A stretch of 62,947 nucleotides of DNA, filler included, from Licmophora abbreviata (GCA_900291995.1; 12 parts of 12 records of this genome joined end to end with filler, not necessarily neighbours in it); one strand, 5' to 3'. Shown: positions 3,101 to 62,947, counted from the whole stretch's first letter. Program-made: numbers and translations. The notes: generated by a model not told the origin, from the letters alone.

Positions 3101-4105
3101 AGTTATCCGCCTTAAGGTACGTGACGAGAAATAGGATCGATGGGAAAAAAGGAATCCGGGCCTCTTCGCGGCGCCTCAACCTAGCACTGTTCATCACCGT
3201 CTCTACAGGTTTCTCCGCTCAATCCTTTCGGTCAAAGACGAGTTTTATCACAGACACATCATTCAACACAATTTATTTGCGCCGGTGTTTGAAGCGTTCC
3301 GGGCCAATCCAGTGGGCGACAACCTGGTTTCATCGGCCGTCGTCGAGGTAAGTGTGCTGGGACGTTGTGTTTGTTGTGTTTTCTTTGCTAGGAACTGAAA
3401 TTCGCTTACGCATCGATGCTTTCAATCGATCTATCCTTCTCGCAGATGTGTGACTTTATTCACAGCCAGCGCGTCAAGTCCCTGATCGAATATATTGTGA
3501 CGAAACATTTGTCGGTGCCAGTAGCGAATCCTGGATCGGAAAAACCGATGCTGAGTCTGGAAGATGTTGCGACGCCATATGTGACAACGTTGACGAAACT
3601 GCGAAAGGAGTACGAAGCTGATTTATCCGGAAGTACTAGAGGATCAGCAACTCCCGAGCAGAACAAGGACAGTGCGACTCTCAACGGGGATGTTGCTTAT
3701 AATACCAACACGTCCCTGGCTGGTACGCCTCGCGTCGGCATGAGCGAGAAAGCTCTTGAGGACCAGGTGAGCGTGAGATGTGTTTCTGCAACAATACACG
3801 CGCTGTGCTGAGCAAGACGTTGTATAGCTTATCCCGTATGTCTCTTCTTTTTGACGACGCAGCGCAAATTCCGTGAGGCGGACGAGCTTGAATCGTATTT
3901 CGATTGCGATGACGACGACGATGACGAAGAATCAACCCGGATGACTTCCTCGGTATCAGCGGACGAATCGCGCGCTGGTGATCTTCATCGAGCACCTCGT
4001 ATGTTCTCGCTTGTCCAAGCTCCGCTGCTCAACCGTACGATGGAGCGCGAAGGTATAGAAAACGAAACTCGGCAGGAAGCAGAGGGCGATCAAGAGTCCA
4101 ATTGA
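191..4105 (+). CDS. Protein phosphatase 4 regulatory subunit 3 (SMEK/Psy2 family), multi-exon
   Basis: EVH1-like start [35 protein letters not shown]-1-type LEYDPDL..HRWFL and [17 protein letters not shown]. 1-nt frameshift in the ACT/AGT microsatellite near 848. GT-AG introns at about 3117-3208, 3348-3445 and 3767-3862 join ORFs 901, 3416 and 3851. Confidence 0.9.
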
Positions 4106-5209: not shown

Positions 5210-5810
5210 TTTCTTGGAAGCCAGAGTCAGTCACGAGTGATGAATCGAGTCGAGTCATAGGTAGACTGAGTCGACCGAGTCAACTGAGTCGAACTATCAT
5301 ATAAACTTCGACCCCAACAAGATGACCGCGATGCCATGACTCTAGAGACGACTGTAGTCTAGTCTAGTCTAGTCTACATAAACGCCAGTGCCGCGATCCC
5401 AGTGCGTCTCCCCTTTCGTCAGACTGCATTATCATCGTCATGGTGCGCTTTACGCNNNNNNNNNNNNNNNNNNNNNNNNNNNNNNNNNNNNNNNNNNNNT
5501 TAATTAATTAANNNNNNNNNNNNNNNNNNNNNNNNNNNNNNNNNNNNNNNNNNNNTCTTGGAAGCCAGAGTCAGTCACGAGTGATGAATCGAGTCGAGTC
5601 ATCGGTCAGTCATGGGTAGACTGAGTCGACCGAGTCAACTGAGTCGAACTGTAAACTTCGACCCCAACAAGATGACCGCGATGCCATGACTCTAGAGACG
5701 ACTGTAGTCTAGTCTAGTCTAGTCTACGAGTACATAAGCGCCAGTGCCGTTATCCCATTGCGTCCCTGCTTTCGTCAGACTGCAGCTTTATCTTCATGGT
5801 GCGCTTTACG
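5210..5810. repeat. Imperfect ~245-bp duplication on either side of the gap (about 5210-5455 vs 5556-5810)
   Basis: Both copies run from TCTTGGAAGCCAGAGTCAGTCACGAG to ATGGTGCGCTTTACGC with small indels; both are rich in GAGTC and CTAGT motifs. Confidence 0.85.
5456..5555. other. Assembly gap with six-frame-stop linker TTAATTAATTAA
   Basis: N-run + TTAATTAATTAA + N-run. The same structure recurs at about 10797, 24521, 26439, 31031, 32856, 35113, 42140, 45049, 46380 and 55852. Confidence 0.97.
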
Positions 5811-9575: not shown

Positions 9576-10772
9576 CTATTCGAAGCAAACTCCAAGATCT
9601 TCGAGTTCCCGTTTCCTTAACGCTCGTGTATTCCTCCTACAATGGATTCTGTTTGGGTGAGTACGGCTAAGGGCAATGCTGCGCTGACGATTCAGCCATA
9701 CACCCAGTTTTCGATACTTGGGATGATTCTCCAACACGCAACTGTGACCATGAAGCTCCCGAAATCGCCTCAACTCAGACAAACGCGCTTCCCACCTGAC
9801 ATCAGCTGATCTGAGCTCACCGAACGTCACACCCAACTTTTCTAGCTTTCTCCTGTGTTCCAGCCTTGTCGCTCTGCATCTTATTTGAACCTTTGAAGAT
9901 GGATCATCCACGAGTGTACAGCGTTGCCGTTTGAGCCAGCGTCCCAGTCTGCCGTACCTGGTTCGATCGCGCTGCGTAATACAACAATGTCCATGACGCT
10001 GATGAAATTGAAATAACTTGCGATACATGCTCTCCCAGTCCTCTAGAGTCGTCGCCATCTCGACATCCTCGGTCGATTCCTCGTCAAGGGAAGACGATAG
10101 ATCTTCCTTAACCTCCTCCAAGCAGTTTGGGCTGGTTGTCTCGAACGTTTTCGAGTTTCCGGAATCGGTCGATGGACTAGTCTTGACAAGATCGATCGTG
10201 ACCGTTCCTGACGCTCTCTGACGAAACGGCAATTGACAGCGACGTCCACTTGAGGCATCTTCACCTCTTTTCTCGTAGCTATTAGCTCTCGTCAATGAAC
10301 GTGCATCATCACTAGTAGGATACGTTTCACGCCAGTGCCGAGAAGCACCGGATCGATTGGGACGAAGGGGCAACTGAAAAACGTTTTCTGAAGCATCCGC
10401 TGACTCAAAGGAAACCTCCGGTTGGCTGTACATGTCGAAATGCCTCCTCATTCTTCGAGGAAGAATCGGCAGGCAGTGAATATCATCCTGCGACTCGGAA
10501 GGAGCAGAGTCGTCCGTAAAGACGCAGTTGATCGGAGAATGGGCGTATGACTGCCCACGTGGAAGACACTCTTGCATCTCCAAGACAATAGCTTGATGAG
10601 CGTGCTCGAGAGCTTTCAGATGGCTGGCATAGTCAGCGTACGACGTCGATGTTGGCCATAAATTTGGGTTCATGCTCGCTCTAGAGGAGAGGAACGAAGG
10701 ACTTTGTCTGTGTCGCCCCAAGCTATTGGACTCTATCCTCGCAGACATCCGACGAATTGTAGCCTCATCCAT
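9576..10772 (-). CDS. HA domain protein, 2 repeats; tandem paralog of 7430-9325
   Basis: WESMYRKLFQFHQRHGHCCI...LGRWLKRQR...LEKLGV and WEARLSELRRFRELHGHSCV...LGVWLNRQR...LEDLGV. Confidence 0.85.
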   Translation of the reverse strand: MDEATIRRMSARIESNSLGRHRQSPSFLSSRASMNPNLWPTSTSYADYASHLKALEHAHQAIVLEMQECLPRGQSYAHSPINCVFTDDSAPSESQDDIHCLPILPRRMRRHFDMYSQPEVSFESADASENVFQLPLRPNRSGASRHWRETYPTSDDARSLTRANSYEKRGEDASSGRRCQLPFRQRASGTVTIDLVKTSPSTDSGNSKTFETTSPNCLEEVKEDLSSSLDEESTEDVEMATTLEDWESMYRKLFQFHQRHGHCCITQRDRTRYGRLGRWLKRQRCTLVDDPSSKVQIRCRATRLEHRRKLEKLGVTFGELRSADVRWEARLSELRRFRELHGHSCVLENHPKYRKLGVWLNRQRSIALSRTHPNRIHCRRNTRALRKRELEDLGVCFE

Positions 10773-10896
10773 CGTTGCAAAGTTCGCTACTCAAGANNNN
10801 NNNNNNNNNNNNNNNNNNNNNNNNNNNNNNNNNNNNNNNNTTAATTAATTAANNNNNNNNNNNNNNNNNNNNNNNNNNNNNNNNNNNNNNNNNNNN

Positions 10897-11286
10897 GTGG
10901 AGGCCCAGATCATGACGCGCTTGAGCTTGGACTGGTGCGGCAAAAAGGATACCAAGGAAGTCGCCGAAACCACCTTCAACATTGTTGCCATCTCCTTTAT
11001 TGTCTTCTTGATTATCGGATGGTGGTTCGTCCCCATTGCCATCATCTGGATCATCTACCAGCTCATCATTGGCACTCGCATGCGTGGATCCTTCCGCCGC
11101 AACTACGACATCCCCGCCAACTACTGCACCTGTTGCGAAGGCGGCATGGAAGACTTTTGCTGTGTCTTCTTTTGCAGCTGCTGCACGGCCTGCCAGTTGG
11201 CCCGCCACACGCACGACGAAGATGAGTACCCCTACCAGTGCTGCACCAACAGTGGCCTCTCGTCGGGTGCTCCTGCCATTGTGTAG
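10897..11286 (+). CDS. PLAC8-family Cys-rich membrane protein (5' end lost in gap)
   Basis: R...RRNYDIP...EDFCCVFFCSCCTACQLARH is the PLAC8 C-terminal signature, preceded by a TM segment. Confidence 0.85.
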   Translation: MEAQIMTRLSLDWCGKKDTKEVAETTFNIVAISFIVFLIIGWWFVPIAIIWIIYQLIIGTRMRGSFRRNYDIPANYCTCCEGGMEDFCCVFFCSCCTACQLARHTHDEDEYPYQCCTNSGLSSGAPAIV

Positions 11287-12075
11287 TCTGAGCGCTCCTT
11301 GTATTCTTTGACTCTTTAGAGGCAACACGTATAATGAGCTTTGCAGGTGTGCTTTGCTTGTCCAGAGTAGAGTCGAAATCTATGTCAGGGAATTCCATGT
11401 GAGAACTGAAGTCCTGTTCCTCTCTCGGCTGGTCGCTCGCCGTAGGTTTGGAGTTAGTTCGTAGCTCTAATCTCCACTCCAATAGGGAGCAGTCTGTTGG
11501 TGACTCAGTCGATTCATTCATTCTATGTGCGAGTCCAATCTCTATGGTTTTGCTAGTTTATAACTTCAGTTCAATCTTCAACTCGCATGGACTGCATATG
11601 GGTATCATAGTGCGGAATGCCACAGATAGACTACCGTGAACCTAGAGGGACTATGACTCATCGTCTTCCACACTATACTCGCATCGTAACCAGCGGTCAC
11701 TGTTGAACCCGTCGACGTCTGGCCATGCCCCGCTTTGCAGCTCTCTCGCGCCCGTGTCCGCCTGCCACAGCCACACACACACGACCAACATCATCTCACT
11801 CCACTCTCACACAGGCGTGCTTGTTCGTGAACCTATGCACACCCACGAACCACGAGCAAACTTCTTGCGACAGCAACAATCTTCCGTCTCGTCCCCCACC
11901 GGGAGATCGTGAAAGAATTGGAATTGAGAAGCTCGAAGTAGAGCTGGAGAAGCGGAATACTTCCATTTCAGCTAGTCAGAGAGCCATTCGTTCTCAAGTT
12001 TCAAATTTCGAAATCAACAATTCAGATTTTTTCATTTCATTATTCTAGTCGCTGCCTGCTACTCGTGCTGTTCTC

Positions 12076-14361
12076 ATGCCACGAAAAGAGGAGCAGCCGC
12101 AAGAGCTGATTGGCTTTGGGTCCAATTTCTTCTACGCGCTGGGTGATTCGAATTCCGCAGATGCCATTGTGCTGCAACACGAGCGTCCGAAAGCGGCGTC
12201 GTTGTCGTCGTCGTTTACTAAGCAGCTCTCGCTGAGAACGGAACAGTCGTGTGTCTAGAGGAGGGACCGAACTTTGACGACACTCACCAAAAACAGGAGC
12301 AAGAACTGACTTCAGACAGTACTAGCGAGAGTCCCGCGGCGACAGATGGCTCCTCAAGCCATCATGAGCCGGCTCATGCCACTACCGCCGCCCAACCGGT
12401 ATCTCCACCAAGAGTGCACGCACGACGATTGCGTCCTTTCTGGAACGGCAGAACCAAAGCTTCTTACGAGTCAAACACAACCTTGGAACAAGTCGTTTGT
12501 ACTGCCACATCGTCCGTTTTTCGCACATCGTCAGGAGAAATACATCAAGTTGGTACTCTACACGGTCGTCTGTATCCATCACCAACACGAGTTGAAATCC
12601 AGTTGCCGCTTCACTGCATACAACTTGCAGCCGGACGACACTTTTGTCTTGCCCTCTTGGAGGGCGGCGTCGGCGTGGTGAGCTGGGGAGCAGGACACTT
12701 TGGACAGCTAGGACATGGTCCGAAGGTTAGTGACCTGGAACAGCCTCAGTTGATTCCACATTTATTGCCACGCGTGCTGGGCATGCGCGTTGCGAGCATT
12801 GCGGCCGGCACATGGCATGCGGCAGCGATTGCACAGAATGGAGCGTGTTGGATGTGGGGGAGCAATCGTCATGGGCAGTGCTGTAGTGCCATGAGCAGTG
12901 GTAGCGGCAAGGCACTGCCGACCTTGGTTGTGCCGACACCCGTGGATACGAAGGTCTTATTTTCTCAAGTGGCATGCGGTAGATTTCATTCCGTTGGACT
13001 GGAACGACAAACAGGACGAGTCTATACGTGGGGATCGAACCTCTATGGTCAAGCTGGACATCCATCATCGTCCTCGCGGAGAGAACGGAGTCGCCGCCGC
13101 CATGTTCGGTTGGTCGAGTCGTTACAACGAGTCGTCATTGCGCAAGTGGCGGCGGGGGATTTGCACACACTCGCCTTGACGGGTGGTGGAAGAGTCTTTT
13201 CGTGGGGATGTGGGATGGATGGGCAACTGGGTGTGGTAGCAGGTAGTACAGTTTGGCCGAGGAGTCGGCCCAAGCTTGTTGGAGATTTGGACTTTGTCGC
13301 CATTGCTGCAGGAGCGGAATGCCGGAAGCCCGAGCAAGCAACAGCAAAAAACAGTGCAGCACATCCCCTCTCCATGGTTCCTCGCGTCATTTCTATTCAG
13401 GCTACGGGCAACTACTCAGTTGCAGTCAGTTCCGCGGGTCACGTGTATGCATGGGGAGGCAACGACACGGGTGTCTTGGGATTACCCACACCTCCCAATC
13501 TCCCTATGATTGATCCACTCGAGCAACATCATCAGCAACAACAACAGCAACAAAAACAAGACGGTCCTTCGTCGTCGTCGTCGCCCTTATTGGGTGGAAA
13601 GCGTACTTTGGAAGCGCAATCATTTGACTGCAAGCACGATGTATGGTTGCCTCGTCGTGTTGATGCATTAACGTCAGGATATCACGTCGGAGGAGTTTGC
13701 CGCCGGACCCGGACACTTGTGGTGCTGGGGCTACAAGCGTGACGAACGGGAGCTATCCGGAGAGGCGGCTCATACTGTAATTGGACGAACTCTGTACGAG
13801 TTGAACGAGGAGAAGCAACGGAAAGGATTCGGTAGACTACGTGATTTCATTGTGAATACGCCAAGAGAGTTTCGAAGCAGTATTGTTGGTGCGGGTCCTC
13901 CCACAAATGATGAAAGTATTGCCAGTGACAATCTCATTGTATCCCCGGAACCTACTGCTGAGGAAGATAGTAGTCGGGCCAATGTTTCCATGGCCACAAC
14001 AGCGAGCAGTACAGCTACATCGCCGCTGGCAGTTCATTCAAGTCCGTCACAGGACGAAAGGCAGCAGCGTCCACCTCGTATTCCAGGTCGCCGCAGTGGT
14101 GGCGCGAATGCCGATGAACAGGAATCCAGCGAGGACGGATTTGTAGACGTTGCTGGGTCATCGGACTCTGGTGTTGAAGCAGCAGCAGGGGACTCTCGCC
14201 GTAAATCGATGGGACGAAGACTATCGTTTGGCGGCCTGTTCAAGAAAAAGAGCAAAGCGAAGATACCGTCCAATAAGGAGGACTCCAATGATCACGGCAG
14301 CAAACGGAGTGAAAATGAAGAATCCCAAAAGGCAACCTTGGACTCCTCGTATAGTTGCTAG
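12076..14361 (+). CDS. RCC1-repeat (beta-propeller) protein
   Basis: Repeats such as QLAAGRHFCLAL..VVSWGAGHFGQLG and QVAAGDLHTLAL..VFSWGCGMDGQLG. Three ORFs join through indels at ~12250 (GT dinucleotide run) and ~13697 (extra T; removing it restores VAAGPGHLWCWG). Confidence 0.85.
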
Positions 14362-14655
14362 AACAAGAGCTATTGTATGTACAGAATTTCACACTCTACA
14401 TTGACTAACAATACTATAACCCACCAAACCAACGAAGAAGAAGGCGCCACGCGATATGACAACCTACAACTCGGCACGACCAAGGTGACCTAGATCAGCC
14501 AAACACTTCGGAAAGGGCGCCTCAGGCGCTTTCACCATAATGTGCAAGTCTCATCATCAGTAGTAGCTTAAAACACTTAGTAGTTGCATTCCTTTCATCT
14601 AGTTTGTAGAACTATTGAAAAAGCTGTAGCACAGACTCCACCTCGTGAAGATCGA

Positions 14656-15429
14656 CTACATTCTCGTATCTTCCGTTTCTTCTGCCGACATGGCATGGAC
14701 GTGATCACCGGAAATCTCGTCTAGGACCTGTCCCAGCGGCTTATCCATCGCATTCGGCACAGCCTTGGCACAAGCTGGAGTGAGGGTGCCACCCCATTGC
14801 TGATAAATCTGTTCGCCCATGATTCTATAGGTTGCCATCATTTCTTTGTTTGACAAACCACTAAAGAACAACACGGGTACGCCTTTGCCATCATGAGCAA
14901 TAAGATCGTCACGGGAGGCAGGTTCATAGTCGTCCGACATGACCCTTTCCAATGCATCACGGACCGACAGATCCATGATATCCTTTCCCACATGATCCAA
15001 TACGACCCCCTCTTCCATCGCTTGCGGCGCACCGTCGCTCAGCATGTCGTAAAATTCGTCGTCTTGGATTCCTAACGGCACATTGTAGAGCAAAACGAGC
15101 GGCCCCGGACCAAAGGCAATATCGTCGCTCTCCAGCTTGACGAAGTCTCCCTCTCGTTCCTGAAGAAATTTAGATACGGAGTCGAAGAGATTCATGGAGC
15201 GAGCCGAGGAGGAGGAGGAATGATGCGAAGGAGCGAACATGACATCACCGGTGTCAGAATGCGGATGGCGGATGGCGGACCAGCGCCCTCGCTTCTTTAT
15301 GACACTATCAATACTGAACGCCTCGACAGGAGAGCGACATGACGCTAGTAGTACCTGTACTATACCGCTACCGGCAGAGAGTAGAACAGCGGACAAGAAC
15401 GTAGAGGGTCTAGCGACGATGCTTCTCAT
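14656..15429 (-). CDS. DUF3783-like protein, probably plastid-targeted
   Basis: Hydrophobic leader then VEA|FS; C-terminal VLFFSGLSNKEM...ACAKAVPNAMDKPLGQVLDEISGDH matches my recollection of DUF3783. Confidence 0.7.
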   Translation of the reverse strand: MRSIVARPSTFLSAVLLSAGSGIVQVLLASCRSPVEAFSIDSVIKKRGRWSAIRHPHSDTGDVMFAPSHHSSSSSARSMNLFDSVSKFLQEREGDFVKLESDDIAFGPGPLVLLYNVPLGIQDDEFYDMLSDGAPQAMEEGVVLDHVGKDIMDLSVRDALERVMSDDYEPASRDDLIAHDGKGVPVLFFSGLSNKEMMATYRIMGEQIYQQWGGTLTPACAKAVPNAMDKPLGQVLDEISGDHVHAMSAEETEDTRM

Positions 15430-16043
15430 GGTGATGTAAAGACGAATTTTGGAATTTGGGTTTAGATTACTTTTTTGTTTCGTTCAGGTTTTCAGCTTTA
15501 CCGTGCTCCAGAGCTCGAGCTGAGCGACCGACGTCACGCACCTTCCAAACCGCGCGAAAAATCCAAAAATCAAAACTTCAAACTCAACATCAACATCGAC
15601 AATGAGCACACACACAGCGGCGATGTGATGCGATGTCGATGCTGCACTGATCCGGGGCAGACGAGGTAGTTTACTGAGTCAAGTCATCGCAAGCAGCACT
15701 CGTCCTCTTTGTATCCTCCTCCTTGCTTTTGCTTTGACTGCAACGAGACCATCATTATGCACCAAAGAAACGAGGTAGCCGGCGGCGCCCGGATGATGTT
15801 TCTGTTCTTTTGCGTGACAGCAACGGCGGCCTGGAATTGTCCTCGACAAAGAAGAGTCAGACTGACGAGAAGGTATAGTAGTAGAAGTAGTAGTGACTCT
15901 AATTCACCGAACCACATCAGAGCTCTACACCCTCCGCCGCCATAGGAGCATCCTCTACAAGTCGAAGTCGACTCGAACGGGCTCTTGATGGACTGGACGG
16001 GACTACTCCTGCTACTACTTCTACTGCCGCTACCAACAACAAC

Positions 16044-17570
16044 ATGCCAGCCCAGTCCAGACAAGGCTTCTATCAGATTGAATCGAAAGAGCAGCACAAG
16101 GCATTCTTAAAGGCCAACTCGGATAAGCTCGTCGTCATCAAGTTCAAGGCTCCCTACTGTCCGGCTTGCAAGGCGATCGAGCCCAAGTTTCTGCAAGTAC
16201 GGAACGACAAGAAATTAGTCAATCTCCCCATTGTATGGGCCGAGTTTACAGCAAGTCCCACCAACAAACCCTTCTTTCGAAGACTCGGAGTCTTGTCACT
16301 GCCGACGGTACATTTCTACGATGGTAATGGACTTGTGGAGAACTTTTCTTGTGGACCGGCCAATATTCCCACTCTCAAACAGAAACTCTCTCAGTTTGTC
16401 AGTAAACGTGTTGATATGGAAACCTTGCAATTGATAGAAAGCGTGACGACCGAAGTGCCGTTGGACGGGCCTCGTGTCGTGCGAGAGGTGCTCCTGGCCA
16501 GTGAGCTTGTCGCGGACGAACATATTGACTACCTGCGCGATGGCATGCCCTTCTTTCAGGATCTCACGGACGACGAATTCTACAACCTCTTGGCCAAGGC
16601 ACGACTCCTCACCTTCAATGCTGGTGATGTCATTATGCGACAATTGAAACCACCCACGTCCTTCTTTGTCATCAAGAGCGGAATTTCCGAAATGAGCATC
16701 AAGAGTCGCTTTGAAGATCCCATATCCACGCCACCCACGTATCTGGGTGCGGTTGTAAATCAACTGACGAAATTTGACTACTTTGGCGAGCGGGCATTGA
16801 CGACGGGAGAGCCGTATGCGGCGTCGGTAAGAGCGCTGGAAAAGACTCGATGCTTTGTCTTTAATGCGGAAGATATTCCAGAGAGCTCGATATTGAGCAA
16901 GAAGCGGCGCGCGTCTCGTGCCATGGTAGAGCAACTGACGGAGCGATATGTACTGCCAGAAGACTATACAGTCACACATCCTGTAACCCAAAAGGATGAA
17001 AGTATACTGGAGTTGCTTGTGAGGTTCAAACAGATCCGTCAAGCTGCCAAGTGTTTCGAGTATGTGAGGAGTGCGGAGCCGCTCCTTGGCGACAGGGGAG
17101 AGATTGCACGTCGGTCCTTGTTGGTGTCCAAGCTATCCAAGAGTCAGCAACAGGATTTCGTGGAGGTTTTTCAAATGGCAGATGTCAATCGGACAGGCAC
17201 GATCAGCCTATTGGAGATGCGACGGTTTATGGAGAGTGCGCGCAAGGGACGAACCGACGAAGAGCTGGTGGAAATGATCAATAAGGCTAACGTGGACAAT
17301 CCAGGATTCGATACTGGAGTTCGGATTACTCTGGATGAGTTCATGGGAGTCATGGCTGAGGCAGAGTTTTATTCCCTATTCACAGAAACGTTTCAAGAGC
17401 TTGACAAAGACAACACTGGGTACGTTCGAGCTGGCGATCTCGATGAAGTTCTCGATGGAGTGCGAGACTTGATCAGCGATGATCGAAAGAGTATTATTGA
17501 TGTCGAGGACCAGGATGTGCAGGTAGACTACGAGCAGTTTGCCAGGATGCTTTTGGGAGCTACTTTGTAG
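16044..17570 (+). CDS. Atypical thioredoxin + cyclic-nucleotide-binding-like domain + EF-hand fusion protein
   Basis: Trx VVIKFKAPYCPACK...LPTVHFY...FSCGP; CNB fold FNAGDVIMRQ...FFVIKSG...DYFGERAL...AASVRA; EF loops DVNRTGTISLLE and DKDNTGYVRAGD. The frame is open upstream to ~15902, so the true N-terminus may be longer. Confidence 0.85.
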   Translation: MPAQSRQGFYQIESKEQHKAFLKANSDKLVVIKFKAPYCPACKAIEPKFLQVRNDKKLVNLPIVWAEFTASPTNKPFFRRLGVLSLPTVHFYDGNGLVENFSCGPANIPTLKQKLSQFVSKRVDMETLQLIESVTTEVPLDGPRVVREVLLASELVADEHIDYLRDGMPFFQDLTDDEFYNLLAKARLLTFNAGDVIMRQLKPPTSFFVIKSGISEMSIKSRFEDPISTPPTYLGAVVNQLTKFDYFGERALTTGEPYAASVRALEKTRCFVFNAEDIPESSILSKKRRASRAMVEQLTERYVLPEDYTVTHPVTQKDESILELLVRFKQIRQAAKCFEYVRSAEPLLGDRGEIARRSLLVSKLSKSQQQDFVEVFQMADVNRTGTISLLEMRRFMESARKGRTDEELVEMINKANVDNPGFDTGVRITLDEFMGVMAEAEFYSLFTETFQELDKDNTGYVRAGDLDEVLDGVRDLISDDRKSIIDVEDQDVQVDYEQFARMLLGATL

Positions 17571-44958: not shown

Positions 44959-45419
44959 CCTTCATGATTGCCGTTGCGTTCGAGCCGACAATTCGAAGTG
45001 CTCCACGCCACCAAAGATTGCGCATTGATGCTCCAGTTTTCCTTCCCTNNNNNNNNNNNNNNNNNNNNNNNNNNNNNNNNNNNNNNNNNNNNTTAATTAA
45101 TTAANNNNNNNNNNNNNNNNNNNNNNNNNNNNNNNNNNNNNNNNNNNNCTTGAATGTAATGTCTACAAATACTCAGACGTATCATGTATGATGAAAGCAA
45201 ACGGCTTTCATGACTTCCTATGCAAGTATCATACCAATAATTGAACCACAGCTAGTTCGGCTTGCGAGTACCGCGATGTATCGCGGAAGGACGGACCATG
45301 TGTCTCGACCATAGTGTCAAAGTGTCGCCTAGGATGGGACCTCCATGTATTATATGTACATTGAAAAGTAGCTCCATAGAATGTATTATCCCTATGGATT
45401 TGCCCATTCTCACCCTCTC

Positions 45420-55205: not shown

Positions 55206-57035
55206 CTACGCAAAGTACTCCAGCCCTCCTTTCTTCTTTGCTGCCACAATTGCAATCGCTTCCACAAAATCTTCGTGACCGACGGCTGATGCCTCTCGTC
55301 GCAACGCCAACATGCCCGCCTCGACGCAGACGGCCTTAATCTGAGCACCATTGAAACCATCACACGAACTCGCCAGTTCCGAGAATTCAGCACCATGACT
55401 GACATGCATTCTGCGGCTGTGAATGTAAAACATCCGCTCTCGAGCACTCTCGGATGGCATTGGAAGCTCAATCTTACGATCCAATCTACCGCTTCGTAGC
55501 AACGCAGGATCCAAAATATCGGGACGATTGGTAGCTGCAATCACCTTGACTTGGTCGTTTGGTGTGAAGCCGTCTAGTTGGTTCAACAGTTCCAGCATGG
55601 TTCGTTGTACTTCTCGTTCACCAGATTCATCGCCTCCGTATCGCTTTGTTCCAATCGCGTCAAGCTCGTCTATAAAGAGGATGGCACCTTCGCTCTCTTT
55701 GTCCTTGATTCTCTGTTTTGCCAGCTCGAACGCCTGTCGAATCATGCGACTGCCCTGCGGAGAGAAGGACAGAACGAACAACGCGACTTAGACCACGCTT
55801 CGGACAGTCAGGGCCCTTCGTGCGAACGACGATGCATCCATCGAAACAACANNNNNNNNNNNNNNNNNNNNNNNNNNNNNNNNNNNNNNNNNNNNTTAAT
55901 TAATTAANNNNNNNNNNNNNNNNNNNNNNNNNNNNNNNNNNNNNNNNNNNNGAGAGAAGGACAGAACGAACAACGCGACTTAGACCACGCTTCGGACAGT
56001 CAGGGCCCTTCGTGCGAACGACGATGCATCCATCGAAACAACATGCTACGTACTTCTCCTATATACATTTGCACCAGTGTGGGGCCCGCCAATCGAAAGA
56101 ATGTTGCGTTTGTTGAGTTGGCACAGGCACGGGCTAGCATAGTCTTACCAGTACCGGGAGGTCCATGTAGCAACACGCCCTTGGGCGGACGAATGCCAAT
56201 CGTTTCAAACATGTCTTTGTGAGTCATTGGTAGCACGACTGCCTCAATGAGTTCTTGTATCTGCTCGTCGCATCCGGCAATGTCAGCATACGATTCCCGC
56301 GGACGATCGTCTATTTCCATTGCTTTGACGCGTCCATCAAACTCGTCCGGGAGCTTCTCGAAAATCAGATACGAGTCCTTGTTGACTCCCACGAGATCGC
56401 CGGGCTGCAGAGCTTCGGGTGGGACGAGTCCAGGATGAGGTAAGAACATAGTTTGTCGAGTCGAAGTCTTAATTACGACGGTGACACCGCTTCGACTAGC
56501 ACTGCCATCCATGGCTTGACCATCGCCGTCACGATCTGGCACCACCACGCCTACAGTAGCGATGAAACAAGAGAAACAATCCACACTAGTGTGTCAGTCG
56601 TTCGGAAACGCCGAAATCGACGCGAGCATTCAATGAATCTATCGCGATACCTTCATCATTCCCTTCAATAGGCAGTACTTCGACGACTGTCGCTACCAAC
56701 AGTGGCAGCTGCGTGTTGACCTGAATCTTATCCTGGTTCTCTCGAATCTTGCGTCGCTTGGTTTCACTTTGAATGGCAATCATCTGCAGGTCCCTGCGCA
56801 TGACACGAATCTCGTTGTCTATCATCCGAGTCAGCTGTCGCAGCTCACCAGTTGTTCGATGTTGAGCTTCTCGCTCCAAATCATCTTCCAAAGGCATGAC
56901 TTGATTACCAGCACGATATCCAAGAATATCCGTTTCCTCCAGCAGATCAGAATGCGCGGAAGGCTGACTGATAAGGGTGCTGTGATCTTGCTCTTCTGCT
57001 TGCGTCGAGACCGTCTCGTCGTCTGACTTTGTCAT
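55206..57035 (-). CDS. RPT5: 26S proteasome AAA-ATPase Rpt5 (subunit 6A), multi-exon, spans a gap
   Basis: [82 protein letters not shown]. Confidence 0.92.
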
Positions 57036-57444
57036 TGTCCACAAAAGCGAAGTGTGTTTTCAGGGATCAATGTTATTCTGTCTTGGGGTCGTTTTGTGAG
57101 ATCACAATCAGAACACGGAAGATGATGAGAACTCTGTTGACACTGGCATGGTGTCAGCCATAATCCGACCCAGGAGCACAAGACGAAGGGTCACCCGGCG
57201 CGATGTTCGCAACACCCGAACCGTGAGGCCTATTTCTTCTGTGTCCACCATGGCAGCAACACTAAACAAAACGCGGCCAGCGGCAAGCTGATCGACGGAC
57301 TATACATTACGTTTACACCCTCGCAATGAGAGCATACATGATTTGAAGATGGAGCAGGCGTCACCGTTTCATCGTTAACAAAGTGGGGAGACGATGAATG
57401 CCACAGACATCCCCGTTGTACGTGTACATGCATAATATTAATAT

Positions 57445-58203
57445 CTATACTCCATCCTCTATCGCAACCTTCGGCTTGGTCTTACTACAGAACCTTTGGA
57501 CGCCGTCCACCTCTTCCATAAGCTGGTTTAGCGATTTCTGGTTTGCCATTATGGCGTCAATATCGACAAAACAGTAGGTGTCTCCTTCTCGGAGCATGTC
57601 CTCGCACTCAAAGTAGTGATGCGTGTATCCAGCCCCCTTGCACCATTCGAAGTCCGACTTGATCCAGCTCTCTAGCATATGTTTCATGTCAATGCACCAT
57701 GTGGGGAGAGACGTCGATTCTGTGAACTTGACCAAGCGTTTCTTCAGGCAGTCCTTGCCCACGTGATCCCAAGGGTTCACCCAGTTATTTTTGGCCTTCA
57801 ACTGATTCTGGAACAAGTTGATCAATTGCGCGGCCGAGTTGGCGAGGTGAGAGTTGGACACCGTATTCTCGTTCGTTTTGATTGCCCGGAGTGACGGCTC
57901 GATTTCGATCAGTGCCCGAAACGGAGTGACTCCGGACTGTACGATCCTTTCGAGCGACATTAGATAAATATTCTTCGGCCCAAAGGCGTCAGCGTAGGCC
58001 TCTAGCATTTCAGGACGAAAATTTGGATCCCCGCTGCTCCCTATCGTGTTGAGCACACATCTTTCAAAAGTGCGCCCCGGCCCATCCTTGGCCTGCTGAT
58101 TGCATTGAGAAAGTAGCTGTGACGCTTTGCCGCGATGCACGTACACAATCTTGACATGAAAGTCCCGAAGAATCTCAGCAAGCATTTCGATATAGTCCGG
58201 ATC
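57445..58203 (-). CDS. 3' part (252 aa) of a host-like gene, possibly P-loop/sulfotransferase-like; 5' end missing, read in frame from the phage terminase
   Basis: Moderate GC like the host DNA. LAEILRDFHVKIVYVHR...QLLSQCNQ loosely resembles the downstream motif of sulfotransferase-like proteins; no N-terminal P-loop present. Confidence 0.5.
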   Translation of the reverse strand, partial: DPDYIEMLAEILRDFHVKIVYVHRGKASQLLSQCNQQAKDGPGRTFERCVLNTIGSSGDPNFRPEMLEAYADAFGPKNIYLMSLERIVQSGVTPFRALIEIEPSLRAIKTNENTVSNSHLANSAAQLINLFQNQLKAKNNWVNPWDHVGKDCLKKRLVKFTESTSLPTWCIDMKHMLESWIKSDFEWCKGAGYTHHYFECEDMLREGDTYCFVDIDAIMANQKSLNQLMEEVDGVQRFCSKTKPKVAIEDGV

Positions 58204-59622
58204 CTTTGCCAGTTTGTGATTGCCTGCCGGGTCAACGATTGTGATTGCGTCCGCGAAGGCGGAACGCAGCAGCAGCGACGGCAGGGTGCGCACCTTGCCC
58301 TCGAACAGCGCCCGCCGGAACCGCTCCACATCCTCGGAGCCGTCGCGCCAGCCCATCCCGCGCCAGACACAAGGCACGCGCTCCAGCCCGGCCCCACGCA
58401 GCGCCTCGACAAACTCCGCATGGCGGAAACGGTCGCCCACGATTGCGGCCGGTGCCTGCCCGTCCAGAAGCGCCACAACGTCCGCTAAGAAGCGGTCAAC
58501 GGGCACGGTCGTGTCGCCCATTGTCACCAGCTCGCCCCGGTCGCTCATCTCGACATATCGGCCCGACACGCCGTCCGCCGCGCCACGATCCGCAAGGCCC
58601 GGTTTCGTCGGGAAGGCTGCCACGCATTCAAGCCGCGCCGTCTCCGGCCAGTAGAGCGCCGCCGCCGACATGCTGCGCGAACCGCCCAGATCAATGCCCA
58701 GAACGACAGGCCCGGCCCGTTCGGGCAGAGCATCGGGCGCGATCTCGGCCGCAAGCCATTCGTCGGTTGTCACCAGCACCGACCTATCGTCGGACGCGAC
58801 ACGCTCATTGCGGTTGAGATTGCGAAAGCTCGAAAGCGCAGAACCGCCCCGCGCCATCGCGCGCCGCGCCTGCGCAACCAGCCATTCCGGGGTTGAGCCG
58901 ATATTCTGCCGGGCGCCGGGATTGGCGATCAGCAGGCTTTCCAGATCGTCGGGCGGCAAGCCCGGCTCCGGCCGGTGTTCCTGCACGTAACTGCCGGGTG
59001 GCGGTTCATCCAGCCACCGGGAAAAGGTGTTCGCATCATCCGGAGCACTGGTCGAGATAATCAGCGCCCGGCCGTCTCTTTTGCCCAGCCCGGACAGAAT
59101 TGCGTTTTCGAGATTGTCGCCCTTTTCCTTTTCCCATGCGGCCCGTTCGTCAAGGATTGCCAGCGTCGGCGCACCGCCCAGGATCGACTTGCCGTCCGCC
59201 GCGATAACACGCGCCAGCCCGCCGCCTTTCTCGGCCGTCTCCACCTCCAGCTTGGAGCCGCGCCGGATCGTGAATTGTTCCTGTTCTTCCTCGGGCAGCC
59301 CCTCGATGAATCCGAGCAGAAAGCCAAAGGCGATCTTGGCTTGATCCCGGTTCCGGGCCGCGAAGATGATTTCCCGCTTGGGCTGCGGTGCGATCTCGCC
59401 CATCAGGTGCCCCAGCGACAGGCCCGACGAAAGCGCCGTTTTCGCGTTGCCGCGACCGATCGACAGCAGCCCCACGGCCGTGCCCTTGGCGAAGGCCCCG
59501 CGCACAAAGTCCTTTTGATAGCTCGCCAGCTTCAACCGCTTTCCGGCCGTGCGCCCCTCGGGAACCGTGAGCCGCGACAGAAAGCGCAGAGCGGCCGATG
59601 CCTCTTTCGATGCCCGCGCCAT
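58204..59622 (-). CDS. terL: Phage terminase large subunit, C-terminally truncated (473 aa)
   Basis: LASYQ (Q motif), LSIGRGNAKT (Walker A-like), AARNRDQA, LAILDE (Walker B), IIST, ANPG, GIDLG (nuclease), GDRFR; G-rich RBS before ATG 59622; ends at DPAGNHKLAK. Confidence 0.9.
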
Positions 59623-59782
59623 CAGACTGCCCCCCGGAATTTTTCTCGGAGAGAGAACGGAACAGTTGGGTGGTCGGTAACACGCCTGCATAGAAAGCCG
59701 GGTATTGGGACCACAGGCAAGGAAGTGCGCATCCCTCCAAGGGTGCGCACACTTCCCGGGGTATAAGGGGTGTGTGCGAACA

Positions 59783-59828
59783 GGGGGGTGGAACGGGGTT
59801 GGAAGGGGGTTGGAACGGGGTTGGAAAC
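59783..59828. repeat. Four tandem ~11-bp GGGGTTGGAAN repeats (candidate iterons/ori)
   Basis: GGGGTGGAAC GGGGTTGGAAG GGGGTTGGAAC GGGGTTGGAAA, immediately downstream of the helicase stop codon. Confidence 0.75.
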
Positions 59829-59833
59829 TACGC

Positions 59834-61003
59834 TCATTCCGTCACCTCCAGATGCGTGCGCCGCTTGGAAGGCGGTCCATCCTCGGCCACGCGCAGCTTG
59901 CCAGCCGACAGCAGGCGCTCCATCGCCGCCTTGAATGCGCGCTTGGTGACGCCTTCATTGTCGGGGTGATCTGAGAACACCTTGGGCGCGTAGGCTTGCC
60001 CGCCCGCTGCGTTGACGCGCCGCCCTTGCTCGGTCAGCTTGCCCAGCAGCGTGAGGAATACGCGCTCCGCCTTGGCGTTCACGGCCAGCGCATCAAGCCC
60101 GGTCGGTTGCTCATCGGGCACGAACACGCCTTCGCGCCACGTCATGTTGATCTCGCCGCCTATGCGCCCGTAATTCGCCTTCTTGGTGGACATGACGCGC
60201 TTGTCAGGGTCAGGCTCGTATCCGTCCTGAATGATGCGTGACAGGTAGAGCCGTGACCGAACGGAGTTGTTCCAAGCGGTCGAGCCGGACGTGCCGGTGC
60301 CACTGGACAGGCCCGTGAGCGACGGATGCCCCAGCAGCATGACAGCGCACCGTTGCCTCAGCGCAAGACCGCGCAGAATGCCGATGAACTGGCGCACCTT
60401 GGCGCGGTCGTTTTCGTTTGCGGGGAACACGTCCGCGAGCGTGTCCAGCACGATCAGCGCGGGTTGTTCATCCGCCGCCCGTTGCTCCAATTCCTCGAAA
60501 AGAGCGGAGTGCATCAAGGCGAGCTGCGTTTCCACGGCCAGCAGCGCATCCTCGCCCGCGAGCGAACGCAGCGTCAGCCCTTCTACATCTGTGTAATCAA
60601 GCCGCTCCGCCCTCAGAATGTCATTGAGGCGGATATGCAATTCGTCGTCGTCATCCTCGGCGCTCAGAAAGATCACACGGCCGGGATTGACCGGCTTGCC
60701 CATCCAAGCACGCTCCGCCGCCGCCGCGACGGCCAATTGCAGCGCCAAGAGGCTCTTGCCGGTGCCGCCGTCGCCTGAAAACAGCGTGACGGTTTTCTTG
60801 GGCACCAGCCCGTCCACCAGCCATTGCCGCGACGGCACGGGCTTACCTTTGAGGGTGGCGGCGCTGTAGAACGTCGATTGACGCTCGGGCGCAGGCCGAA
60901 TGATCGACGGGCCGGGCGGGTAATGAGGCTCGTCCGGGTCGCGGGGAATGTCCGCCCGGTGCGCGTCCAGGTGCGCCGCAATGTCTGAGAAACTCCGCGT
61001 CAC
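59834..61003 (-). CDS. AAA_25/RepA-like SF4 replicative helicase
   Basis: WLVDGLVP, Walker A GDGGTGKS, VIFLSAED, Walker B LIVLDTL, NEND, LLGHP, SGSTAWNNSVRSR, KANYG; C-terminal wHTH-like tail. Confidence 0.92.
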   Translation of the reverse strand: MTRSFSDIAAHLDAHRADIPRDPDEPHYPPGPSIIRPAPERQSTFYSAATLKGKPVPSRQWLVDGLVPKKTVTLFSGDGGTGKSLLALQLAVAAAAERAWMGKPVNPGRVIFLSAEDDDDELHIRLNDILRAERLDYTDVEGLTLRSLAGEDALLAVETQLALMHSALFEELEQRAADEQPALIVLDTLADVFPANENDRAKVRQFIGILRGLALRQRCAVMLLGHPSLTGLSSGTGTSGSTAWNNSVRSRLYLSRIIQDGYEPDPDKRVMSTKKANYGRIGGEINMTWREGVFVPDEQPTGLDALAVNAKAERVFLTLLGKLTEQGRRVNAAGGQAYAPKVFSDHPDNEGVTKRAFKAAMERLLSAGKLRVAEDGPPSKRRTHLEVTE

Positions 61004-61395
61004 GCCGCTTCCCTCCCCTGCATGTATTCGAGGAAGGCAGCGCGACGGCCGGGTGCCATCGCTTGCACGCAGGCCAGCGCGTAAGCGTCAAGCTCGGCCG
61101 GGCTGGCAATGTCCGCCCAATAAGCCGCCTCGTCCATCGGTGAGATAAAAGGCGGTAGCGGTGCGCCCGCGCCTTGGATGACGGTATAGGCAACCTCGCG
61201 CGCGTGATCCTCGTCAAGGCTGCGCAGAGCGGCCCACGCCAGCGCCGCCCGCTCGGTCTCGGTCAGTCGGGCTTGCCAGATTGCGCTCGCCGCTTCCCAA
61301 GCTTCATAACCGCCAAGGATCAGCGCATAGCCCAGCAGCTTCGCCGCCTTCTTGTGCGCCGTCTTGGCATAGAGCGATATGGCGTTTCGCGTCAT
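61000..61395 (-). CDS. Hypothetical satellite/phage protein
   Basis: 131 aa, translationally coupled to both neighbours; MDEAAYWADIASPAELDAY. Confidence 0.75.
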   Translation of the reverse strand: MTRNAISLYAKTAHKKAAKLLGYALILGGYEAWEAASAIWQARLTETERAALAWAALRSLDEDHAREVAYTVIQGAGAPLPPFISPMDEAAYWADIASPAELDAYALACVQAMAPGRRAAFLEYMQGREAA

Positions 61396-61613
61396 GCCGA
61401 CTCCGCAACAAATCCGGTCAGGCCCTCGTCGGTGAGCTGCATCCGGGCTTGGTTGGCGTGACCGGGCGAGACGCAGAAAATCACTTCCTCCGGCTCGCCC
61501 GCCCGGTGAACCGTGATGATCGTGCGCCCGTTCGGCATATGCTCGACACGGAAATATCCAGCGGGCTTGCGCGCCAGCAGATCGTCAATGGAAAGACTGC
61601 CCGCCCAGCTCAT
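61392..61613 (-). CDS. Hypothetical satellite/phage protein
   Basis: 73 aa; ATGA overlap with alpA and GGAGG-like RBS (GAGGTGG). Confidence 0.7.
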   Translation of the reverse strand: MSWAGSLSIDDLLARKPAGYFRVEHMPNGRTIITVHRAGEPEEVIFCVSPGHANQARMQLTDEGLTGFVAESA

Positions 61614-61798
61614 GCCGCCACCTCAGCCTTGGCGGATTCCCAAGCCTCGATTTCGGACAGTTTCCAACGGGTGCAGCCGGGCGACAGTCGAACCGGGCGC
61701 GGCATGTCGGTGCGCTCGCGCTGCCATCTCCACCATGTGTTGCGGGAAATGCCGTAGCGCGCGGCGCAATCGGTATCTCGGAGAAACGTCTCGGGCAT
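61610..61798 (-). CDS. alpA: AlpA-family regulator/excisionase
   Basis: FLRDTDCAARYGISRNTWWRW......MPRPVRLSPGCTRWKLSEIEAWE; AGGAG RBS upstream. Confidence 0.88.
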   Translation of the reverse strand: MPETFLRDTDCAARYGISRNTWWRWQRERTDMPRPVRLSPGCTRWKLSEIEAWESAKAEVAA

Positions 61799-61805
61799 TG
61801 TCGGC

Positions 61806-61866
61806 TCCTGTTGTTACAGGAACAGACAAATCAGATAGCGACAGGGACAGTGGTGTAAGTGTCCCT
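61806..61866. promoter_or_regulatory. Two inverted repeats upstream of alpA (candidate operator/hairpins)
   Basis: AGGGACA-N10-TGTCCCT (61843-61866) and TCCTG-N6-CAGGA (61806-61821, overlapping the alpA RBS). Confidence 0.45.
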
Positions 61867-62566
61867 AGTTTTTAGAGCGGTGTCGGCTCCATTGTTTCTT
61901 AATGCCCTGCCAGCCGCCAAAGCCGCGCGCCTCAAGATTCTTCGCGGCCGCGTTGACACTCATCTTTTCCGTTAACCTTTCCATCTCGCGCATCCGCGCG
62001 GCTCGCAAATCGCGGTGTTCCCTATTCACCGCGTCGGCTGCCCTCCGCCTGCCTCTTGCGATTGCCTGCGCCTCTGTAACTTCCGCAAGGTGATTGTCGC
62101 GCATTCTCACCATCTCCAAGAGAATACCAATCTGCACAAGGCGCATGTCAGTATCCATGATGCCCCGGGTTCCCGTCGCCTTATCTCTTCGCCAATAATT
62201 GATATGATCGGCCACACGGGCTAGAAACCGCTCGCGGCTTAGAGGCGAACTGAACTCCTCGACATAGTGAGTCGCCGTGCCACGCCGCATAGGTGAAGTA
62301 TCGCCCGGCACGATGTAACTCCAAAAGCCAAACTCATTGAACGCAACTGCGCTTGCGGGATCGGGCAGCCCGCGCGCTTCGAAAAACTCCTTTATTGCCG
62401 CCATTTCCTCAGACAAAAAGCCCTGAATATCCTGTTGAGGCTTGCGCGCATCTTCATCCAGCATCCGGCTTGTAACTTCGGCTGGGTCTTCACCGTCCTC
62501 CCAAATCGGATAGCGGGTCGCATATTCGGCCATCGCATCCTTGTGCACTTCGCGCCGCCATTTCAT
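61865..62566 (-). CDS. Hypothetical protein between int and alpA, possible C-terminal HTH
   Basis: 233 aa; overlaps the integrase stop; tail MSVNAAAKNLEARGFGGWQGIKKQW looks HTH-like. Confidence 0.65.
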   Translation of the reverse strand: MKWRREVHKDAMAEYATRYPIWEDGEDPAEVTSRMLDEDARKPQQDIQGFLSEEMAAIKEFFEARGLPDPASAVAFNEFGFWSYIVPGDTSPMRRGTATHYVEEFSSPLSRERFLARVADHINYWRRDKATGTRGIMDTDMRLVQIGILLEMVRMRDNHLAEVTEAQAIARGRRRAADAVNREHRDLRAARMREMERLTEKMSVNAAAKNLEARGFGGWQGIKKQWSRHRSKN

Positions 62567-62947
62567 CTTGCCGCCTCCATCTTCACCACCTTAGCCCCGG
62601 CCTCGCCTTTGAGGAACCGCGCCCATGCGGCCATCATCTGCCGCCGCTTTTCGATCATGTCGCCGCGCCGATAGGCCCGCTCGACCGTGCTTCCCACGTT
62701 GTGCGCCAAGGCAATCTCGGCCATATCGCGCTCAAATTCGGTGCGCTCCGCCGCCCAGTCGCGGAACGTGCTGCGCAGCCCGTGAGGCACGGCAGGACGG
62801 CCGGAACGCGAGTCGAGATACCCGCCGTCGCGTGCCTCGTTTATCCGCTTCATGCAGGCGCTCAGCGCCATGTCGGACAATGCGCCACCGCGTGCGGCCG
62901 GGAACACGTAGTCGCTGCCCTTCATCCTTGGCAGAGCCTTCAACAGC
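62563..62947 (-). CDS. int: Tyrosine recombinase (P4-like integrase), C-terminal part; continues beyond the window
   Basis: YVFP...LSDM.L; HGLRSTFRDW (H-x-x-R); LAH; ERAYRRGDMIEKRRQMM..W (catalytic Tyr). Confidence 0.95.
   Translation of the reverse strand, partial: LLKALPRMKGSDYVFPAARGGALSDMALSACMKRINEARDGGYLDSRSGRPAVPHGLRSTFRDWAAERTEFERDMAEIALAHNVGSTVERAYRRGDMIEKRRQMMAAWARFLKGEAGAKVVKMEAAR

Follow-up and report, generated by a model that had tools for sequence, protein, structure and literature searches.

Near the end of a 62,947-nucleotide stretch of DNA from Licmophora abbreviata (GCA_900291995.1), called the window in the following, diatom DNA passes directly into a block of bacterial genes that resembles part of a phage-inducible chromosomal island (PICI). 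Has a bacterial satellite entered a diatom chromosome, or have two unrelated DNAs been joined? A sequence-only reading of this locus had kept both possibilities and had regarded a chimera as at least as likely as a transfer. Our answer, with a probability of about 0.82, is that positions 58203-62947 are a 4,745-bp internal piece of a bacterial island of ~10.8 kb which was misjoined to a diatom contig and does not belong to the chromosome of the diatom. What made the observation striking, a satellite located in a diatom chromosome, is most likely an artefact of assembly. Judged by its nucleotide identity to bacterial genomes, the segment is from a Roseovarius-like bacterium of the Rhodobacteraceae.

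The change from one DNA to the other is abrupt. GC content is 0.51 over the whole left part of the window (1-58202) and steps from 0.504 in the diatom part of the last contig (55952-58202) to 0.635 in 58203-62947. In a 500-bp profile it rises from 0.51 to 0.60-0.70 across 58000-58750. The segment holds seven minus-strand open reading frames (ORFs) without internal stops, six of which have a GC content at third codon positions (GC3) of 0.73-0.81. In the order of transcription they encode the C-terminal part of an integrase (Int), ORF233, AlpA, ORF73, ORF131 and an AAA_25 replication protein (Rep), followed after a 142-bp spacer by the large terminase subunit TerL. Four of the six gene junctions are 4-bp overlaps. 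The GC-rich coupled operon of the sequence-only reading, comprising Int, an ORF, AlpA, two small ORFs, an AAA_25 protein, repeats and TerL, was thus confirmed by ORFs, Pfam matches and GC content.

The join lies at 58202..58203, with no strand assigned, inside the terminal contig of 6,996 bp. There is no N gap at the join; the nearest one is 2.25 kb away. Among 136 loci searched, all of the best 25 alignments start at 58203-58211. The earlier boundary, 58204, was right as to the abrupt switch, but bacterial homology begins at 58203 and, as a correction, both TerL and Int prove to be truncated. In the bacterial relatives, TerL runs for 37 further codons past the join point. Contigs of two public sequencing runs (X2 and X5) have loose ends exactly at 58203, and their sequence past this position equals that of the Roseovarius sp. 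locus L033, unlike the window. The other gene at the join is a sulfotransferase-like ORF on the minus strand (57448..58202). Four of its six homologues align their own residue 57, 152, 163 or 188 with query residue 4-5 and thus carry 56-187 extra N-terminal residues before the point aligned at the join. The fifth aligns its residue 46 with query residue 24, and the closest homologue (P0001, 51% identity) starts at query residue 66. From these alignments, the join has most likely removed the 5' end of the diatom ORF, which lacks at least 56 N-terminal residues. As for its identity as a sulfotransferase, the Atlas matches provide a weak lead.

Since the break lies inside TerL and the island's own ends, which are tRNA-linked repeats, are elsewhere, the integrase of the island did not make the join. 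A different enzymatic origin was considered because of a GGATCC/GATC sequence at 58199-58204: two restriction fragments could have been ligated in a clone library. A GATC stands at 58200-58203, and just one other occurs within 58001-58400. Ligation after cleavage with Sau3AI or BamHI needs the site in both parents, but the three bacterial relatives that continue past the join and two metagenome contigs have no GATC there. With the site on the diatom side only, an origin by restriction and ligation at GGATCC was rejected, and we regard it as hardly credible.

Sequences that bridge the join were sought outside the assembly. None of the 24 public runs listed for the query 57200-59200 contains at least half of its words; the holders of these words are metagenomes and run X20, and they carry the bacterial half. 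No contig extends across 58203 in X20, X1, X2 or X5, where missing cover is no evidence either way: in these four runs the diatom side is uncovered except for one weak bin in X1, and the first listed piece of X20 begins at 58388. A metagenome scan of the diatom flank with an exact 30-nt pattern yielded 0 matches, and a protein-based scan matched 59 stretches, none encoding a relative; neither scan revealed the diatom gene in intact form.

TerL relatives were found at 56 loci when one genome of every prokaryote species was scanned. The window is 92.7% identical to L033 at the nucleotide level over 3,845 bp (58203-62041) and 95.9% identical over another 386 bp (62562-62947); strong divergence between the two is confined to ORF233. 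A Rhodobacteraceae metagenome-assembled genome (MAG; L001) is 96.6% identical over 2,206 bp (58203-60408), up to the end of its contig, and an IMG/VR contig (L057) has 96.8% nucleotide identity to the window. In run X20, 11 contigs that are all at least 99% alike match 58388-62947 only. Eight listed pieces of this run, together 3,588 bp, do not differ from the window in a single letter, and one X20 contig extends beyond the last base of the window. According to the abstract of PMC8383342, Rhodobacteraceae are habitual associates of diatoms. The source bacterium probably lived in the diatom culture.

If the join were real, illegitimate recombination would have inserted the satellite DNA into the nuclear genome of the diatom very recently, with disruption of the sulfotransferase-like gene on perhaps only one haplotype. 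In favour of such an insertion speak the position of the join within a contig that has no N gap there and overlaps its neighbour exactly over 92 bp, the habitual company of Rhodobacteraceae and diatoms, and the fact that nothing in our analysis disproves the join. Against it, no independent sequence bridging the join was found in the runs, contigs, metagenome scans or 136 loci. The listed X20 pieces have zero divergence from the window and the composition is unshifted. Both genes at the join are broken at arbitrary points, and only a single side of the supposed insertion is present, as the fragment is terminal in the window, which ends within the integrase. Of the two marks of a true transfer, a join supported independently of the assembly and host DNA on both sides, neither was found. 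In addition, small contigs joined by linkers are a setting in which single chimeric reads may create joins. We consider a genuine insertion very improbable.

The chimera is favoured by the truncation of both genes, the absence of divergence or of a shift in composition, the terminal position, the draft character of an assembly of small contigs and the habit of Rhodobacteraceae to live with diatoms. The bacterial fragment would have been attached to the end of the diatom contig through a chimeric read or clone or through an error of the assembler. Of the two possibilities in the sequence-only reading, the chimera is now strongly favoured by the truncations, the lack of an att site and the identity to X20, and the transfer has gained no positive support. 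Bacterial contaminant joins in draft eukaryote assemblies are a known class. With this class the window shares the abrupt switch in composition, the terminal spot on a small contig, intact and near-identical bacterial genes, and a join unsupported outside the assembly. It differs only in that the chimera lies within a contig and not at a scaffold gap.

Several points weigh against our reading. The diatom part of the terminal contig is anchored by the exact 92-bp overlap and by the continuity of the RPT5 gene. The chimera thus lies within a contig, and such misjoins arise less often than scaffolding errors at a linker. TerL shares strand and frame with the diatom ORF: the minus-strand frame stays open from TerL through 252 diatom codons and forms one ORF of 748 codons (57445-59691), a coincidence of about 1 in 6 that we take as chance. 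The exact match of X20 is perhaps not independent, since this run may come from the very sample that was the source of the window. With these points included, sequence comparison rather than read-level evidence makes a chimeric contig highly probable.

The practical consequence is one of quality control. A gene caller might annotate the 748-codon terminase-diatom fusion ORF as a diatom gene, and surveys of horizontal transfer might count it. Unless reads prove the join to be real, the fusion should carry a contamination flag. If the transfer were true, it would be a case of bacterium-to-diatom transfer caught before any sequence change.

What is the element from which the fragment was taken? 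The window covers only the int-to-TerL half, 4.7 kb without an att site. In L033, the complete island measures ~10.8 kb and extends from a repeat at 2961-2978 to tRNA-Ser(CGA) at 13765-13854. One copy of the 18-nt direct repeat lies within the tRNA-Ser gene and the other upstream of int. The first half contains int, ORF254, alpA, ORF73, ORF131, rep and the iterons; the second encodes TerL, an Hc1-like head-closure protein, an HNH nuclease, an HK97-type capsid protein, an S78 prohead protease, ORF177 and the portal. Beyond the portal, small ORFs follow, some of them with zinc-ribbon motifs. The layout of int, alpA and rep plus packaging genes and the likeness to capsid-forming PICIs (cf-PICIs), both part of the sequence-only reading, hold on this complete element in the bacterial relatives. 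Just outside the left repeat, L033 carries a transposase gene (528-2093; phrog_1157, E 2.5e-105).

The gene order TerL-(Hc1)-HNH-capsid-protease-ORF177-portal is found in nearly all 56 loci and the frames are intact; the int/alpA/rep side is mosaic among them. Direct repeats linked to a tRNA gene were found in 31 of the 56 loci and bound elements of 9.4-11.3 kb in 30 of these; L022 is a repeat-bounded copy of 6.6 kb that lacks the portal. The tRNAs concerned are those for Cys, Asn, Gln, Ser, Arg, Leu, Met, His, Pro and Lys. Hosts belong to the Rhodobacterales, Sphingomonadales and Hyphomicrobiales and to two gammaproteobacterial genera, and TerL is 77-89% identical across genera. The two gammaproteobacterial loci (L042 and L055, from Salinisphaera and Wenzhouxiangella) have a TerL of 58-62% identity, the same head order and tRNA-linked repeats. 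Two circular permutations relative to the att site occur among the loci (L002, L005, L012 and others versus L006, L009 and L033). The window is of the type that has int far away from the tRNA and ~4.3 kb between the left repeat and TerL. In the second type, int adjoins the tRNA and the distance from the left repeat to TerL is ~1.5 kb. In Mesobacterium hydrothermale (L019), a second capsid/protease pair (1504-3300) is found ~8.5 kb upstream of the main element (10001-15641), which suggests two related elements in one neighbourhood.

The product of ORF177 was modelled from 42 homologues (pLDDT 87.8). Its best structural match is the neck chain 6te8_B of the Rhodobacter capsulatus gene transfer agent (RcGTA), with a Z score of 10.2 and a root-mean-square deviation of 3.7 over 144 residues. 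Neck chains of five phages follow at Z 6.4-7.1, and unrelated folds reach at most 5.6; the Foldseek E value is 1.0e-3. From this fold, we read ORF177 as a head-tail adaptor. The head-closure protein Hc1 gave a PHROG match in L033 and L002, and tblastn finds it in 11 of the 56 loci. Among 103 ORFs of at least 70 aa in the delimited elements L006 and L002, none matched a tail or lysis PHROG at E ≤1e-4. Recognised genes fill ~8 of ~10.5 kb. No ORF of L033, L006 or L002 had a family of the small terminase subunit TerS as its best match, and phrog_4581 was touched by HNH ORFs only.

Known systems of similar build allow a classification. A recent preprint characterizes cf-PICIs by a size of 10-18 kb, an integrase, modules for regulation and replication, and the absence of lysis genes and of a complete tail module (10.1101/2025.02.11.637232). 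The cf-PICI models described in PMC10085698 contain 11 core components and forbid tail and holin profiles; conversely, the PICI model of SatelliteFinder forbids the cf-PICI portal, connector and adaptor (PMC10085698). Like the cf-PICIs EcCIEDL933 and KpCIDSM30104 of enterobacteria, the island family has an integrase, AlpA and a Rep gene with origin repeats next to it, and its own HK97-type TerL, HNH, portal, protease, capsid, adaptor and connector. Tail and lysis genes are lacking, the size is within or near 10-18 kb, and the variable slot for adaptor and closure proteins echoes what the authors of these papers describe.

Differences from cf-PICIs exist as well. The usual cf-PICI order is terS-terL-portal-protease-capsid-adaptor-connector, but the island order is TerL-(closure)-HNH-capsid-protease-adaptor-portal. 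The islands live in marine Alphaproteobacteria and a few Gammaproteobacteria, measure ~10.5 kb compared to a cf-PICI median of 14 kb, lack a recognised small terminase, and encode a TerL that is ~29% identical to terminases of HK97-group phages. Size and att repeats, the set of Int, AlpA and Rep, the set of TerL, HNH, portal, protease and capsid, adaptor and connector, and the lack of a tail or lysis module nevertheless agree with cf-PICIs. The island family probably works like a cf-PICI and is a probable new member of that kind, as far as genes and boundaries, by which it is known here, allow us to tell.

Two other classes were compared. With classical Gram-negative PICIs the window shares int, an accessory gene, alpA, small ORFs, rep and origin repeats. 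Such PICIs lack terL, portal and capsid, whereas the window has TerL and its relatives have portal and capsid; the TerL, portal, adaptor and capsid genes rule this class out. RcGTA resembles the islands in its alphaproteobacterial host, its small HK97-type head and the neck chain that is the best structural match of ORF177. RcGTA has tail genes, neither integrase nor att sites, is inherited vertically and packages random host DNA. The islands, in contrast, are integrated at tRNA genes, bounded by repeats, equipped with Rep and iterons and devoid of tail genes. An agent of the RcGTA type was ruled out by the integrase, the att repeats, the Rep with iterons and the missing tail genes.

Published satellite surveys centre on enterobacteria and Firmicutes. 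In the literature searched, no description was found of PICI-type satellites in Rhodobacteraceae or of this family in Alphaproteobacteria. Alphaproteobacteria are never named in the main text of PMC10085698, and its supplements may list such hosts; in the accessible part of PMC12669031, 'phage-inducible chromosomal' occurs only in the reference list. The family, earlier suggested to be an under-described alphaproteobacterial one, also has gammaproteobacterial hosts (Salinisphaera and Wenzhouxiangella).

How such an island might live can be proposed from its gene content and published cf-PICI biology; gene content and boundaries are what is observed here. Flanked by short direct repeats, the island would reside at a tRNA gene's 3' end and be excised by Int and AlpA. 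The AAA_25 Rep would act on the 11-bp iterons just downstream of rep, leading to replication. TerL and the HNH nuclease would then package the ~10.5-kb DNA into small heads of the HK97 type, for which the island itself supplies portal, protease and capsid protein, and the adaptor, together with the head-closure protein in some copies, would prepare the head for the tails of a helper phage.

Even with an artefactual join, the element might be a decayed HK97-like prophage remnant without tail and lysis genes instead of a functional helper-dependent satellite. The lack of a recognised small terminase and of a known helper phage counts both for a remnant and against the satellite part of our reading. 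Among 79 matching records of deposited phages, all had less than 60% TerL identity (best ~29-30%), and no candidate parent or helper was found. Terminal direct repeats of at least 15 nt, which would mark an excised or packaged form, were found in 0 of 80 IMG/VR contigs carrying this TerL, which provide no evidence of encapsidation. The 6.6-kb copy without portal would also fit decay. A remnant does not sit well with element sizes in the narrow span of 9.4-11.3 kb in 30 of 56 loci, insertion at ten or more different tRNA genes, a broad range of hosts, a head-gene order kept with intact frames, and a TerL that is 77-89% identical across genera and at most ~30% identical to that of any of the 79 deposited phages. 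Narrow size, kept order and high cross-genus identity point to a transmitted, size-constrained element under selection and not to independent decay. We consider a remnant unlikely and retain the helper-dependent satellite as the probable nature of the family.

With 56 loci and 80 IMG/VR contigs, the relatives of the segment form a widespread, size-constrained family of ~10.5 kb that is integrated at tRNA genes, encodes phage heads only and is found in marine Alphaproteobacteria. If it is helper-dependent, the borrowing of phage tails extends to abundant bacteria of the ocean, among them associates of algae. For the phage-satellite field, this head-only family is of moderate interest.

The single genes of the segment, all on the minus strand, bear out its close relation to the bacterial islands. 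TerL (58204..59691) comprises 496 of 533 residues, the last 37 being missing. It matches Pfam TerL_ATPase with E 1.8e-09 and has 98.6-98.8% amino-acid identity to the proteins of L033 and L001; the full-length protein has 533 aa in L033, and a full-length relative matches PHROG 9. Just upstream of TerL, the motif TGGTCCCAAT (59704..59713) is unchanged in all five aligned elements, even where its flanks do not align. A role in packaging or regulation is conceivable.

Between the rep stop and the TerL start, four tandem 11-bp repeats with the unit TTCCAACCCCN on the coding strand are located at 59782..59825. These repeats are putative iterons of a replication origin to which Rep may bind. In L033 (7110-7160), all four copies read TTCGC(A/C)CCCN, with the core CGC(A/C) versus CCA(A/C) in the type shared by the window and L001, despite 92% identity of Rep between the window and L033. 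Concerted alteration of all four copies is expected of iterons that evolve together with their Rep, and this comparison suggests that origin repeats and Rep specificity change together. Rep itself (59834..61003) is a RepA/DnaB-like P-loop helicase (Pfam AAA_25, E 1.8e-36). Its L033 orthologue matches PHROG primase/helicase families, and a primase domain was not detected in the window Rep.

ORF131 (61000..61395) is all-helical and has homologues upstream of TerL in seven further loci; its structure model (pLDDT 49.1) was too poor for use. ORF73 (61392..61613) has homologues in three loci, and no family was found for it. The AlpA-type excisionase/regulator (61610..61798) matches Pfam Phage_AlpA with E 6.1e-06 and 26.5 bits at a cut-off of 21, and its L033 orthologue matches PHROG excisionase families. 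In total, three of the seven proteins of the segment had no Pfam family match.

The variable accessory gene ORF233 (61865..62566) occupies the int-alpA interval. It shares 42% identity with ORF254 of L033 (4309-5073); the last ~60 residues are nearly identical and the N-terminal ~170 have diverged. In a contig of the public run X2, 669 other letters replace the ORF233 region. Searches of Pfam, NCBIfam and PADLOC gave no family for ORF233, and its Atlas matches carry none. A conserved C-terminus combined with a diverged N-terminal part is the pattern that would be expected of a sensor or specificity domain. The tyrosine integrase fragment (62563..62947) consists of the C-terminal 127 of 415 residues and is cut by the window end. 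Its match to Pfam Phage_integrase (E 0.0016) is under the curated cut-off; it shares 98.4% identity with the C-terminal end of the 415-aa L033 integrase, which contains Arm-DNA-bind_3, Phage_int_M and Phage_integrase. No tRNA gene was found in 55952-62947. A promoter and terminator scan of 58203-62947 was uninformative, with 0 promoter-like sites (0.7 expected) and 2 terminator-like sites (4.6 expected).

The left part of the window is diatom DNA. For a 508-aa ORF (16044-17567), 418 relatives reach E ≤1e-10. In the 120 best of these, six source names are fully legible (Seminavis, Nitzschia, two Cylindrotheca, a Bacillariaceae MAG and Cyclostephanos), all of which we take to be diatoms; two more are MMETSP/EukProt entries with incomplete names. 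The window consists of 12 contigs of 1.2-13.6 kb each, strung together with linkers. Each of its eleven 100-bp gaps is composed of 44 N, TTAATTAATTAA and another 44 N, a six-frame stop linker for stringing contigs.

The diatom part of the terminal contig (55952..58202, minus strand) contains RPT5 exons and the sulfotransferase-like ORF. By homology, RPT5 exons were placed on the minus strand at 55206-55787, 56000-56593 and 56586-57044. The linker gap at 55852..55951, to which no strand applies, separates the last two contigs and falls between RPT5 exons, 2.25 kb from the join, in agreement with the ~2.2 kb and the position inside RPT5 given before. The 92 bases before this gap (55760-55851) are identical to the 92 bases after it (55952-56043). 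This means that the terminal contig truly overlaps its neighbour, and that the unmerged overlap together with the linker creates a false 192-bp insertion in RPT5. At two further gaps, 5456-5555 and 45049-45148, common stretches of 76 and 64 bases, respectively, are found at most 400 bp from the gap.

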